Shown piece after piece: positions 48,000 through 53,891 of a stretch of DNA of 64,000 nt. Under the pieces are notes generated by a model. The model saw nothing but the letters and a program-made list of their open reading frames with translations, did not search any database and was not told the origin of the DNA. The stretch is from Candidatus Saccharimonadia bacterium (lineage in GTDB: Bacteria; Patescibacteriota; Saccharimonadia; UBA4664), in NCBI GenBank assembly GCA_041743505.1, contig JBGTMQ010000015.1:13531-77530 (forward strand). The letters run 5' to 3'. The number at the start of each line of letters is the position of its first letter. Within the stretch, counting starts at the first letter, position 1. A program made the translations under genes and the position numbers.

Positions 48000-48839
48000 A
48001 TGACAGCTGGCCGGTTGGCCTTGTTCAGGCGCTCATTAGCCATTGCCGCAGTCGCGGTGGTTAGCTTGGTCATGCTCGCCCCGGCAGCTCTGGCCAGCTT
48101 ATCGCAGGGCTACGCCTCCACCGCGCCGATAGCGGCTGGCACCATGGTCTCCCTGGACGATAAATCCCCCGGCAGCGTCAATGTGGCCGATCTCACCAAC
48201 TCCGAGCGGTTATTCGGTGTCGCCGTCACGCCGTCCTCGGCCTCAGTCTCCTTAGGCGGCACCGGTTCAAGCGGACAAGTCCAGGTAGTCACAACCGGCA
48301 GCGCCACCACCTTTGTATCCACCGCCGGTGGCGACATCCGCGTCGGCGACCCGATCGCCATCTCGCCCATCGCCGGGGTGGGGCAAAAAGCCGACGGCAA
48401 GGTGCGTGTCATCGGTACTTCCCAGGCAGACTTCACGTCCGCCAGCACCGGCACCACCAAACGCACCATCGATGACGGCACCGGCAAGAAAGAAGTCACC
48501 ATCGGTCAAATACCGGTCGTAGTTGCGGTATCGACCTACAACAGCAACACCGGCACCCAGGATTACTCCATTCCGACCTGGATGCAGAACCTGTCCAATA
48601 GCATCGCCGGCAAGACCGTATCACCGGTCCGGGTTATCATTGCCGGGCTTATTCTATTGGTGTCGCTTGTCAGCGTAACGGTCCTGCTCTACTCAGCAGT
48701 GCGCAACAGCATTATTTCAATTGGCCGCAACCCGCTTTCCCGCGGATCAGTCTTACGTAGCCTGTTCCAGGTTATCCTGGTGGCAGCAGTGATTCTAGCT
48801 ATCGCGGTTGGCGCAATGTATTTGGTAATTTCGAGGTGA
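48000..48839 (+). CDS. Hypothetical membrane protein: signal/TM, long Gly/Thr/Ser-rich extracytoplasmic domain, C-terminal two-helix hairpin
   Basis: RBS AGAGGTG; occupies the position where atpB/atpE would be expected; overlaps the atpF start by 4 nt. Confidence 0.5.
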   Translation: MTAGRLALFRRSLAIAAVAVVSLVMLAPAALASLSQGYASTAPIAAGTMVSLDDKSPGSVNVADLTNSERLFGVAVTPSSASVSLGGTGSSGQVQVVTTGSATTFVSTAGGDIRVGDPIAISPIAGVGQKADGKVRVIGTSQADFTSASTGTTKRTIDDGTGKKEVTIGQIPVVVAVSTYNSNTGTQDYSIPTWMQNLSNSIAGKTVSPVRVIIAGLILLVSLVSVTVLLYSAVRNSIISIGRNPLSRGSVLRSLFQVILVAAVILAIAVGAMYLVISR

Positions 48840-49432
48840 CTATGGAGTTAATAATATTAGCCGGGATTACGCTGATACTGGCAACCGTAACGGTTGTCCA
48901 GAGCTATCAGCTGCGCACGTTCAAAGCGCGCGAGAAAGAGCTGGCCGAGAAGCCCAAACCAGTCAAAGTCAGCGAGCCAACCGCCGCTGAGCTGGAAGCC
49001 AAGCTCAAAACAGCCTACGAGGCTCAAATCGCCGCCTCGGTCCAAGTATTTGGCGAGGACTTAAAAGCCACCTCGGCCCGGCTGGGCGAGCAGGTCTCCC
49101 GCCTGACCACCACCGTCATCGAGGAGGAACTCGACCAGTACCAAAAGACCCTGGAACAGATGCGTCACGCCGCCGGCGAGGCCATGGAAAAGATCCGGGC
49201 GGCCGTCGAACAGCAGCGGGTCGAGCTAAAAGCCGGCATGGAGGCCGATCTGGCAGCCGAGCGCCAACGGCAGGCCGACAAGTTCGACGCCAAGCTCGGC
49301 GACGTTGTCTCCAGCTACATCGCCGAATCACTAGGTGGCGGCGTGGACCTAGGCTCGCAGATGCAATACATCTTGCAATCACTCGAAACACACAAGGAAG
49401 ACATTAAAAAGGATCTGCTCGGTGGCGTTTAA
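48836..49432 (+). CDS. atpF: F-type ATP synthase subunit b-like (N-terminal TM, long coiled coil)
   Basis: Architecture and position upstream of delta/alpha. Confidence 0.6.
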   Translation: MTMELIILAGITLILATVTVVQSYQLRTFKAREKELAEKPKPVKVSEPTAAELEAKLKTAYEAQIAASVQVFGEDLKATSARLGEQVSRLTTTVIEEELDQYQKTLEQMRHAAGEAMEKIRAAVEQQRVELKAGMEADLAAERQRQADKFDAKLGDVVSSYIAESLGGGVDLGSQMQYILQSLETHKEDIKKDLLGGV

Positions 49433-49901
49433 ATTACCAAGCACAGTCCATAGCCCCGAGTTACTCGAAAGCGTGGCCTACGAGCTCGAGACATACTTAG
49501 AGTGGTACCGCCAAGCCCGCACCCAGCACCGGGTCGGCGTCAAGCCGCTACCCGAGCCGACCTACTCAGCCGAAACCTCCGAAGTCATCAAGGCCTGGTT
49601 CAGCGACAAGAAACCCACCGTCGAAGCCATTGGGGAACTCCTCAAATACCTGCATGAACTCAAAATGCCGGTGGTCCACGTCATGCTGGCGGCTTTACCC
49701 AACCATGCTCAGCGGCTGCAACTGGTTGATTGGTTTCGCCAAACTGCCGGCATCCCGGTATTGGTGTCCTTCGTCGCCGACCGCAACCTGGGCGGCGGCG
49801 TAGTGGTCCGAACGCCTAACCGCATGTTTGATTACTCATGGCGGCAGCGTCTAGTTGAGGGCCGCGCTAAAGTAGGGGAGATTATAAACCGTGAACGATA
49901 A
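49422..49901 (+). CDS. atpH: F-type ATP synthase delta (OSCP) subunit
   Basis: GTG start; C-terminal GGGVVVRTPNRMFDYSWRQRL resembles the delta signature. Confidence 0.6.
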   Translation: MAFKLPSTVHSPELLESVAYELETYLEWYRQARTQHRVGVKPLPEPTYSAETSEVIKAWFSDKKPTVEAIGELLKYLHELKMPVVHVMLAALPNHAQRLQLVDWFRQTAGIPVLVSFVADRNLGGGVVVRTPNRMFDYSWRQRLVEGRAKVGEIINRER

Positions 49902-52251: not shown

Positions 52252-52311
52252 CCAAGCTGCCCACGGCGGGCATATCAGAGCCGCTTTTATGCTAGTATAA
52301 GGGTAAGCACT

Positions 52312-53625
52312 ATGGCAGCAGGAATACCAGGTCACATAAAGACTATTCGCGGGCTGATCGTGGAGATTGCCTTTACCGGTGAGACCCGGCCGGGTTTGCG
52401 CGAGATAATGACCATCGAGGGTCATGGCGAAATCATGCTGGAGATTCAGTCCTTCAACGAGCACCGCGATGCTGTCTGCATCAGCCTAACTACCAGTTCA
52501 ATGGTTAAGCGCGGGGCCAAGGTAGTCTCCACCGGCTCCACCATCAGCGTGCCGACCGGCGCCAAAACCCGCGGCCGGCTGTTTAATTCGCTCGGCATGC
52601 CCGTGGACAGCCTGGAGGACATTCCGGCCGACGTGCCCCGCCGCGGCATCTACGCACCGGCCATCAACAAAGAAGTCTACACTGGCAAGGACGAATTGTT
52701 GGAAACGGGCCTCAAAGTCATCGACTTCTTCACGCCCTTCGTCAAGGGCCGCAAAATCGGCATCATCGGCGGCGCCGGCGTCGGCAAGACCGTGCTCATT
52801 ACCGAGATCATTCACAACGTCGCCAAAGACCCGTCCAAGCTGGCCTTCTTTGCCGGCATCGGTGAGCGCATCCGGGAAGGCAACGAGCTCTACCAAACCA
52901 TTGTCGAGCGCAAAATGCTCGAGTCCACCATCATGTTCTATGGCCAGATGAACGAGAACCCGGCCATGCGCGCCATCGTCGGTCTGTCGGCCGCCACCCT
53001 GGCCGAGTATTTCCGCGACGAAGAGCACGCCGACATCCTGTTCTTCGTCGACACCGTCTACCGCCACATTCAGGCCGGCAACGAACTTTCCACCATGATG
53101 GGCCAGATCCCGTCCGAGGGTGGCTACCAGGCCACTATTTTCTCCGACCTCAAGCGCTTCCAGGACCGGCTCATATCCAATGCCAACGGCTCCATCACCG
53201 CCATCCAGACCATCTACGTGCCGGCCGACGACCTCACCGACCCGGCCGTGCAAGAGATATCCACTCAGATAGACTCAGTCATCGTGCTCAGCCGTGCCGT
53301 GGCCGAAACCGGTATCCGCCCGGCCGTGGATCTCATCCGCACCAACTCCAGCTTGTTGACGCCCGAAATCGTGGGGGACCGCCACTACCTGCTGGCCACC
53401 CAGGTGCAGGCCATCATGCAAAAGTACGACTCGCTCAAAAACATCATCGCCATCATCGGCGAAAATGAGCTCAGCCCCCAGGACCGGGCCGACTACCAAA
53501 AGGCCAAGAAGCTGATCGAATTTTTCGCCCAGAGCATGTTCGTCACCGAGCACCTCAACGGTATGCCGGGCACCTATTTCTCCCGTGAGCAGACGCTTAG
53601 CGGCGTTGAGGAGATCTTAATTTAA
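52312..53625 (+). CDS. atpD: F-type ATP synthase beta subunit (short, 437 aa)
   Basis: GGAGVGKT Walker A, DELSEED-like region reduced. Confidence 0.95.
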
Positions 53626-53891
53626 TGGCCAAAGAAGCCGAGCAAGCCCCCCGTTTCCGCGTCAAAATCTTTAGCCCATACCAGACCTACTACGAAGGCG
53701 AAGCCGTCAGCTTAAGCGCCTCCAACCGGACAGGCCCGTTCGACATCCTGCCGGGCCACATCAACTTCTTTTCGCTGCTAACCGGCGGCCAGGTCATCCT
53801 CAACACTGGCTTTCAGCAACTCGAGTTCCAGATCGCCCGCGGCGTACTACGGGTTGACCACGACGCCCTGACGTTATTTGCCGATATTTAG
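53625..53891 (+). CDS. atpC: F-type ATP synthase epsilon subunit, N-terminal beta-sandwich only (88 aa)
   Basis: ILPGHINFFSLL motif; lacks the C-terminal helical hairpin. Confidence 0.7.
   Translation: MAKEAEQAPRFRVKIFSPYQTYYEGEAVSLSASNRTGPFDILPGHINFFSLLTGGQVILNTGFQQLEFQIARGVLRVDHDALTLFADI

Follow-up and report, generated by a model that had tools for sequence, protein, structure and literature searches.

An F1-like ATPase gene cluster of Saccharimonadia with a membrane hairpin protein in the atpE position: a candidate surface-coupled ATPase

A 64-kb stretch of DNA from a Candidatus Saccharimonadia bacterium (the window) carries at 48000-53891 a cluster of seven tightly packed genes on the + strand, encoding the subunits of an F1-like ATPase, a b-like stalk protein and a membrane protein here called X279 (Table 1). 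All seven open reading frames (ORFs) proposed in the first-pass annotation of this DNA were present, with the coordinates and lengths it had given. The gene order, X279-b-delta-alpha-gamma-beta-epsilon, is that of atpE-F-H-A-G-D-C, with X279 occupying the atpE slot and coupled to the b-like gene. The overlaps of 4-11 nucleotides (nt) described earlier hold for three junctions, namely X279/b (4 nt, if the b-like gene starts at GTG 48836), b/delta and delta/alpha (11 nt each), but not for the others: alpha and gamma abut, gamma and beta lie 60 nt apart (52252-52311) and beta and epsilon share 1 nt. An alternative b-like start, ATG 48842, is better placed, with GAGG ahead of it. The gamma-beta intergenic position is an insertion hot spot, where unrelated genes of 0.7-3 kb were found in many relatives (L001, L011, L015, L018, L021, L088 and L091).

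The gene upstream of X279 is on the other strand, and a TATAAT sequence and a ribosome-binding site precede X279, indicating that the transcription unit starts with this gene; a consensus scanner called no full sigma-70 site at the predicted promoter. The split arrangement that had been considered at first, with atpB and atpE immediately upstream, was not found there, the upstream gene being on the opposite strand.

Table 1. Features of the ATPase cluster and its upstream flank (positions in the window)
Feature	Position	Strand	Description
X279	48000-48839	+	ORF of 279 amino acids
b-like	48836-49432	+	ORF of 198 amino acids; peripheral-stalk candidate
delta-like	49422-49901	+	ORF of 159 amino acids; shortened delta/OSCP homologue
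alpha	49891-51399	+	ORF of 502 amino acids; F1 alpha-like
gamma	51400-52251	+	ORF of 283 amino acids; F1 gamma-like central stalk
beta	52312-53625	+	ORF of 437 amino acids; F1 beta-like catalytic subunit, short
epsilon	53625-53891	+	ORF of 88 amino acids; N-terminal beta-sandwich only
X279 c-subunit-like hairpin	48612-48836	+	GRNPL loop codons at 48723-48737
Promoter-like and ribosome-binding stretch before X279	47971-47995	+	TATAAT 47971-47976; AGAGGTG 47989-47995; read from the sequence
p179m	47333-47872	-	Nearest gene upstream of X279, divergently transcribed

The Pfam and NCBIfam assignments and the scans for missing subunits bore out the view that the cluster encodes a divergent F-type ATPase set from which a and c are missing. 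No ATP-synt_A or ATP-synt_C protein was detected in the cluster or in the rest of the window by a hydropathy scan of all ORFs and a Pfam search of every ORF with multiple transmembrane segments, and no a or c gene was found beside the cluster in any of about 75 cluster-carrying loci. A protein with four transmembrane segments (46030-46638, 202 amino acids, + strand) might have been a cryptic a subunit; this was rejected because the protein lacks an ATP-synt_A match and a conserved Arg motif and is syntenic in only part of the family. Its gene overlaps another membrane-protein gene on the same strand (45506-46033, 175 amino acids, two transmembrane segments); neither product matches a Pfam or NCBIfam family or resembles an a subunit, and the pair is syntenic in the clade of the window and, among distant loci, in a few (L025, L028, L056 and L081).

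Pfam matched alpha (PF00006, 4e-62), beta (PF00006, 1e-63) and gamma (PF00231, 3e-31), and alpha also matched PDB alpha subunits at 1e-98, while beta aligned to the Bacillus PS3 beta subunit (8spv_D) across residues 53-436 with an E-value of 2.7e-113. Every F1 subunit gave its best NCBIfam score with the canonical family, yet fell below the equivalog cut-off: alpha scored 403.9 bits against a cut-off of 484.45 (TIGR00962), beta 450.2 against 462.85 (TIGR01039), epsilon 44 against 67.25 and delta 19.3 against 57.5, and gamma, with 90.5 against 194.45 (TIGR01146), is very divergent. Gamma is nevertheless kept, at 279-289 amino acids, in 42 loci, and beta is 433-443 amino acids long in most orthologues.

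The catalytic residues are conserved. Walker A, Walker B, the catalytic Glu and the alpha Arg finger were retained over about 40 orthologues with 54-88% identity. The alpha Walker A is GDNKVGKT, as read earlier, and the alpha orthologues keep the P-loop GDxKxGK[ST] and the Arg-finger motif GIRPAxxxGLSVSRVG; all 40 beta sequences have the Walker A GGAGVGKT, and beta also keeps GERxREG and the Walker B Asp. The Tyr of the catalytic beta motif GIYPAVD is the adenine-stacking residue of F1. It is replaced by Arg in all 39 orthologues compared (GIRPAVD, residues 334-340, 53311-53331), a family-specific change that gives the motif an alpha-like look, and the DELSEED motif of beta is degenerate (ENELSPQD). 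To judge from these motifs, the F1-like enzyme looks active and under selection. The Pro/Ala-rich C-terminal tail of alpha is also as first described; its likeness to the mycobacterial alpha extension did not hold, since the tail is of low complexity, variable in length and sequence (Pro/Ala-rich in the clade of the window, Lys/Glu-rich or missing elsewhere) and does not align to the alpha extension of M. smegmatis.

Epsilon matches PF02823 (5.6e-12) over residues 11-87 only, in agreement with the earlier remark that it has no regulatory C-terminal helices, and its orthologues are 82-110 amino acids long. In F-ATPases it is the N-terminal domain of epsilon, the part kept here, that joins gamma to the c-ring. 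Delta by itself gave a weak Pfam OSCP match (E 2.3e-4), and the delta family profile searched against the PDB found the Paracoccus delta subunit (5dn6_H) at 2.7e-6 together with other delta/OSCP chains. The b-like protein, which adjoins X279 in 47 loci, has one N-terminal transmembrane helix followed by a long helical region; its NCBIfam match to subunit B is weak (E 0.009), and its family profile found coiled-coil proteins only, and no b subunit, in the PDB. It is thus a candidate b-type stalk protein, assigned by position and architecture only.

X279 begins with a Sec-type signal peptide (residues 1-32, ALA|S), followed by a conserved SLSQGY, a beta-rich ectodomain (residue 33 to about 190), a short helix and a C-terminal two-helix membrane hairpin (residues 205-279). 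The signal peptide and the positively charged loop of the hairpin indicate an N-out, loop-in, C-out topology, as in c subunits. X279 and its paralogs matched no Pfam, NCBIfam or PHROG family in our searches; a weak precomputed Pfam XM1_gp53 match was found on two X279 relatives. The AlphaFold model (predicted local distance difference test, pLDDT, 73) gave a fold-level match of the ectodomain to phage capsid decoration or cement proteins (Foldseek E ~1e-4).

The hairpin is the most conserved region of X279. The residues G242-R-N-P-L246 of its cytoplasmic loop, SIGRNPLSRG, are invariant in 84/84 family members, paralogs included, and the helices contain no Asp or Glu at positions +13 to +34 and -36 to -7 from the loop Pro in any of the 84. 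The position equivalent to the ion-binding carboxylate of E. coli (D61) and PS3 (E56), Pro+18, is occupied by Leu, Val, Ile, Ala or Gly, and a Gln, Glu or Ser at Pro+12 is not conserved. These results confirm that the cluster is headed by a membrane protein whose hairpin has a c-like loop and no carboxylate. From the loop Pro to the C-terminus there are 34 residues in 66/84 members, as in the c subunit of Bacillus PS3. When the hairpin profile was searched against the whole PDB (E<=10), the sole match was subunit c of Chloroflexus aurantiacus (9itj_H, E 0.099), in register with its AIGRNPE loop. In hhalign comparisons with six classical c subunits the R(Q/N)P loops were likewise in register (P 0.003-0.005, probability 7-10%), and Foldseek placed the hairpin on c subunits with template modelling (TM) scores of 0.74-0.85 and a root mean square deviation of 1.5-4 Å. 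A VirB2-type pilin origin of the hairpin is possible but was not favoured, T4SS_pilin having been matched just once among 30 hairpins (E 0.38). The weak sequence signal, together with the topology, the atpE position, the coupling to b and the retained N-terminal domain of epsilon, makes descent of the hairpin from a c subunit likely, if not proven.

The distribution of the cluster was determined by scanning one genome per GTDB species. Relatives of X279 were found in 168 species genomes, nearly all labelled Saccharimonadia or Saccharibacteria, and a hidden Markov model (HMM) search of 1.84 billion cluster representatives gave 2882 family members at E<=1e-3, mostly of about 250-300 amino acids among the 150 matches listed. 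Neighbourhoods were examined at 80 genome loci and one more, comprising 85 X279 copies, of which 49 were followed directly by b-like, delta, alpha, gamma, beta and epsilon genes in this order. As an independent test, metagenomes were searched with the gamma family; among the 25 loci with enough upstream DNA, X279 lay just upstream of the b-like gene in 18 and after epsilon in one. The gene order is the same across the orders of Saccharimonadia and on hundreds of metagenome contigs.

Published BlastKOALA gene counts are consistent with two kinds of F-type set in this class. In three complete genomes (Ca. Saccharimonas aalborgensis, GWC2_44_17 and Ca. Mycosynbacter amalyticus) the a, b and c genes are each counted once and the alpha, beta and gamma genes twice; TM7x and RAAC3 have a single full F-type set; and bins of the order CAILAD01 have alpha, beta and gamma, sometimes epsilon, and zero a, b or c, counts that may be incomplete as they are based on metagenome-assembled genomes (PMC12592800 Table S5). 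Southlakia has the canonical atpZ/I-B-E-F-H-A-G-D-C operon only (supplement of PMC10633639). An X279-type cluster was found in a Saccharimonas sp. (L050). Most simply read, the X279-type cluster would be the 'second' F1 set and, in some lineages, the sole one. The term 'partial' operon used in the first-pass annotation is misleading: the cluster is a complete, conserved seven-gene system of Saccharimonadia, present as the second or apparently the only set (PMC12592800 Table S5), and not a broken operon.

About 40% of the X279 family members at the genome loci lie away from ATPase genes. Some 22 of about 32 such copies have, within about 200 nt downstream, an ORF of 1,250 to more than 3,300 amino acids; many of these giant ORFs extend past the examined locus, so that their lengths are lower bounds (L031, L033, L034, L036, L038, L040, L044, L047, L048, L052, L061, L065, L068, L069, L072, L074, L075, L078 and L079 are among the loci concerned, with the paralog at about 10000 of the locus and an ORF of about 1,500 to more than 3,300 amino acids directly after it). 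Two of the giant proteins were examined and contain CBM_4_9, LVIVD and Kelch domains and an N-terminal transmembrane segment. Genes for signal peptidase I and ParA/ParB are often found upstream of the giant-linked paralogs. The ATPase-linked and giant-linked contexts are not always apart: one contig (L076) carries both an ATPase-linked and a giant-linked copy, and an ORF of 2,624 amino acids ends 164 nt before an ATPase-linked X279 at L012. One X279 subfamily in Saccharimonadales mixes ATPase-linked with giant-linked copies, while all copies in the clade of the window are ATPase-linked. At two loci a second, divergent X279 paralog directly follows epsilon (L054, 10105-10935, overlapping the epsilon stop; L134, 9484-10182), which hints at mixed or alternative hairpin rings. 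Since the cytoplasmic loop is invariant in all paralogs, these proteins probably share a cytoplasmic partner, for which the foot formed by gamma and epsilon in the F1-like head is the obvious candidate.

The absence of an a subunit together with the loss of the carboxylate excludes ion translocation by the known mechanism and with it ATP synthesis, and the complex should be an ATP consumer. The retention of delta, the b-like protein, gamma and the N-terminal domain of epsilon suggests that rotor and stator mechanics are preserved. We propose, with a probability of roughly 55%, that the locus encodes a non-respiratory, ATP-driven F1-like rotary ATPase coupled to the cell surface. In such a complex a peripheral stalk of delta and the b-like protein would hold an active alpha3beta3 head, gamma and epsilon would form the central stalk, and a membrane ring of X279, docked to these two, would replace the usual Fo. 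Each X279 copy would contribute a c-derived hairpin that has lost its ion-binding carboxylate and would carry a secreted domain of about 160 amino acids on the outer face of the membrane. Hydrolysis of ATP in the cytoplasm would turn or flex the gamma/epsilon-X279 assembly, and the torque or conformational cycle would pass across the membrane to the X279 ectodomains. The giant surface proteins encoded beside X279 paralogs may be driven as well, and these episymbiotic bacteria could employ the output in attachment, in surface movement or in manipulating a host.

Several observations weigh against this proposal. The sequence evidence that the hairpin derives from c is statistically weak, as the PDB E-value (0.099) and the hhalign probability (7-10%) show; a Pfam scan of 30 isolated hairpins gave no ATP-synt_C match, helix 1 of the hairpin has no GxGxGxG packing motif, and any helical hairpin superposes on a c subunit. 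The b-like stator has no recognised membrane partner that could resist the torque. Many X279 paralogs lie away from ATPase genes, and X279 could be an independent surface or anchor protein. Finally, X279 is missing from the surroundings of six of the 25 clusters that the gamma search found. In these six, which belong to one sub-lineage (L114, L117, L136, L140, L146 and L157), the b-like gene comes right after a cysteine-desulfurase-like gene, and in sister loci (L041, L064, L066, L073 and L077) X279 lies between the same two genes. The association of X279 with the ATPase is therefore strong but not absolute: the tie between X279 and the atp genes, on which the first-pass annotation had made its reading depend, was seen in relatives for 49/85 copies and 18/25 gamma loci, and is not exclusive, given the giant-linked paralogs and the clusters from which X279 is missing.

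The proposal has to be compared with other explanations of the locus. X279 might be a generic membrane-anchored surface protein, such as an anchor or assembly factor of giant adhesins, with a hairpin not derived from c, and simply be co-transcribed with an F1-like ATPase that acts in the cytoplasm and is tethered to the membrane by the b-like protein alone. The marginal similarity to c, the six clusters without X279 and the location of about 40% of the family away from the ATPase, mostly ahead of giant surface-protein genes, all speak for this, as does the fact that hairpin pilins such as VirB2 are also grouped with c subunits by fold (supplement of PMC10633639). It is the cytoplasmic loop, however, and not the ectodomain that is invariant (GRNPL, 84/84), pointing to a shared cytoplasmic partner; the sole sequence match in the PDB is a c subunit, in register; the gene has the position and coupling of atpE; and retention of the epsilon N-terminal domain would make little sense without a ring on which to dock. 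We consider this explanation possible but doubtful. An ordinary ion-translocating F1Fo with a split operon, its a and c genes lying in another part of the genome and X279 being an adjacent surface protein unrelated to it, is unlikely. Of a genome of about 1 Mb the window does cover 64 kb only, which leaves room for a and c elsewhere, alpha and beta match canonical atpA and atpD best, and some Saccharimonadia carry a, b and c (PMC12592800 Table S5), the operon of Southlakia being canonical. Where a, b and c are present, however, they come with their own alpha, beta and gamma, making two sets, and CAILAD01 bins with alpha, beta and gamma show no a, b or c (PMC12592800 Table S5); moreover, the F1 subunits all score below equivalog cut-offs with a very divergent gamma, an a or c gene was found beside the cluster in 0 of about 75 loci, and X279, with its invariant R-N-P loop, sits in the atpE slot coupled to b.

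Type III secretion uses homologues of F1 alpha/beta (FliI), gamma (FliJ) and b/delta (FliH), and the cluster could be imagined as an ATPase that exports or assembles the giant surface proteins, with an X279 oligomer as docking platform or gate. In favour of this, FliI/SctN models were secondary NCBIfam matches, genes for giant secreted proteins adjoin X279 paralogs, and several loci encode signal peptidase I upstream. Such a role is nonetheless very unlikely: alpha and beta remain distinct, in the manner of F1 and not of a homohexamer, the cluster keeps epsilon and delta, the N-terminal transmembrane or signal segments of the giant proteins are ordinary ones suited to Sec, and no export-gate homologue is present. 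That the cluster is a functionless remnant of a decaying atp operon would agree with the missing a and c, the short beta, epsilon and delta and the scores below all family cut-offs. Yet all reading frames are intact, the catalytic motifs are kept in about 40 orthologues at 54-88% identity and the gene order is constant across Saccharimonadia orders and hundreds of metagenome contigs, and this conservation effectively refutes decay. A surface-coupled, non-respiratory F1-like ATPase thus remains the reading that we prefer. Its most far-reaching form, a true ATP-driven transmembrane rotary motor in which an ion-free, c-derived rotor spins or cranks decoration-like domains outside the cell and so drives giant adhesins, is speculative, and we would expect it to prove wrong rather than right. 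If true, bacteria would possess, besides the flagellum and the ion-coupled F/V/A-ATPases, a third type of rotary surface engine, with which episymbiotic Saccharimonadia would grip host cells, manipulate them or move on them; it would also suggest that the two-helix 'X0' proteins of the mycoplasma F1-like ATPases are degenerate c subunits.

Among the neighbouring genes, p179m encodes one transmembrane helix and a barrel resembling Sm/LSm proteins (AlphaFold pLDDT 64; Foldseek E ~1e-3, TM-score 0.6-0.7). It adjoins X279 in 31/49 ATPase-linked genome loci and has about 60 invariant residues in an alignment of 25 sequences; it matched no known family. Some Joint Genome Institute records call its relatives 'Hfq', and a gene for an RNA recognition motif (RRM) protein (46742-47002) is also syntenic. 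Given these names and the syntenic RRM gene, p179m may serve an RNA-related function rather than the ATPase, and its membership of the system is uncertain. Further along the window, 18675-20129 (+) encodes a protein of the Pup-ligase family (PF03136, E 3e-53); enzymes of the pupylation type are known above all from Actinobacteria, among which Saccharibacteria usually have their hosts. A VKOR homologue (43623-44219, +), a DsbA-like thioredoxin protein (58906-59613, +) and a secreted protein resembling prokaryotic phospholipase A2 (55788-56189, +) together suggest a disulfide-bond system outside the cytoplasm and, possibly, an effector that acts on membranes.

Rotary ATPases are textbook ion-coupled machines. 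To our knowledge the F1-like ATPases of mycoplasmas are the only well-studied exceptions, and the nature of their 'X0' membrane part and the way force is transmitted are unknown. For Saccharibacteria or Patescibacteria we found, in the searchable literature, no description of X279, of a c-like hairpin fused to an ectodomain or of an F1-like ATPase; prior knowledge was limited to gene counts (PMC12592800) and a remark on a beta tree (PMC10066038). The retained delta, b-like stalk, epsilon N-terminal domain and c-like hairpin could show a route from ATP synthase to a motor that is not ion-coupled, and X279 offers a concrete candidate for the transmembrane coupling element of a system that is widespread in a major class of the Candidate Phyla Radiation (CPR). 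'Nearly complete F-type ATPase' calls in genomes of Saccharimonadia and other CPR bacteria may thus be wrong, and some lineages may have no proton-coupled ATP synthase, which bears on models of their membrane potential. The association with giant surface proteins provides a testable connection to the episymbiotic lifestyle.

Compared with the canonical F1Fo (atpIBEFHAGDC), the cluster has homologous alpha, beta, gamma, delta and epsilon N-terminal domain, intact catalytic residues, a b-like stalk protein with a single transmembrane helix, the same gene order from the atpE position on, and a hairpin that resembles c in topology and length and has an R-N-P loop. It differs in having no a subunit and no AtpI, in a hairpin that is devoid of the carboxylate and of GxGxGxG and is preceded in the same protein by a signal peptide and an ectodomain of about 160 residues, in a beta of about 437 amino acids with a Tyr-to-Arg change in the adenine pocket and a degenerate DELSEED, and in an epsilon without C-terminal helices. 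The N-ATPase (atpDCQRBEFAG) is likewise a second F-type set that coexists with the main ATP synthase, but it keeps a and c (with a Na+ site), includes AtpQ and AtpR and has another gene order; the alt_F1F0 models of NCBIfam scored 347, 410 and 41 bits here, against cut-offs of 750, 752 and 282. The ectodomain of X279 shares its fold with phage decoration and cement proteins (Borrelia BB1, Pam3, Sf11, XM1 gp53, TW1 and lambda gpD; Foldseek E 1e-4 to 1e-2, target TM-score 0.4-0.6), whereas X279 is a membrane protein encoded in a cellular operon and has no PHROG or Pfam sequence match to them.

The F1-like X0 ATPases of mycoplasmas power surface machinery such as the gliding legs of M. mobile (PMC12994834): Type 2 is the G1-ATPase gliding motor of this species, and Type 3 is needed for antibody cleavage by MIB-MIP (PMC3369863, PMC11864180, PMC12994834). 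Like the Saccharimonadia cluster, they are encoded by seven genes beside or instead of a genuine F1Fo, with alpha-, beta-, gamma- and epsilon-like subunits and no a or c, are linked to large surface proteins and occur in genome-reduced, host-dependent bacteria. The Type 2 and 3 clusters also encode a protein with 12 transmembrane segments, a small cytoplasmic protein and a signal-peptide protein with two C-terminal transmembrane helices, and have no b or delta (PMC12994834). Only the last of these three proteins has a counterpart here, in X279, which is 279 amino acids long compared with 85-127 kDa for the mycoplasma hairpin protein and showed no sequence similarity to the MSC_0620 family in an NCBIfam scan. 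The Saccharimonadia cluster, on the other hand, keeps delta, the b-like protein and the canonical order, and has no 12-segment protein. Its alpha and beta are nearer to canonical F1 than to MSC_0618/0619 or MMOB1660/1670, the NCBIfam scores against the MSC_0619/MSC_0618 or MMOB1660/1670 models being 236 (cut-off 520), 378.7 (570), 317 (600) and 319.6 (850).

Finally, Seymour et al. 2023 (PMC10066038) describe, in Omnitrophota, a 'non-respiratory homologue of F-type ATP synthase' whose beta is reported to cluster with betas of Ca. Saccharimonadia; the text around their Fig. 5 gives no account of its membrane component. The Omnitrophota genes usually lie within 10 kb of type IVa pilus genes, and a cell-surface role was proposed (PMC10066038); here, by comparison, no pilus genes were found in the 64-kb window. 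As described in the same text, that enzyme too is distinct from the prototypical ATP synthase and belongs to ultra-small, host-dependent bacteria (PMC10066038). By analogy, the Saccharimonadia cluster appears to fit the non-respiratory F-type ATPase of Omnitrophota (PMC10066038).

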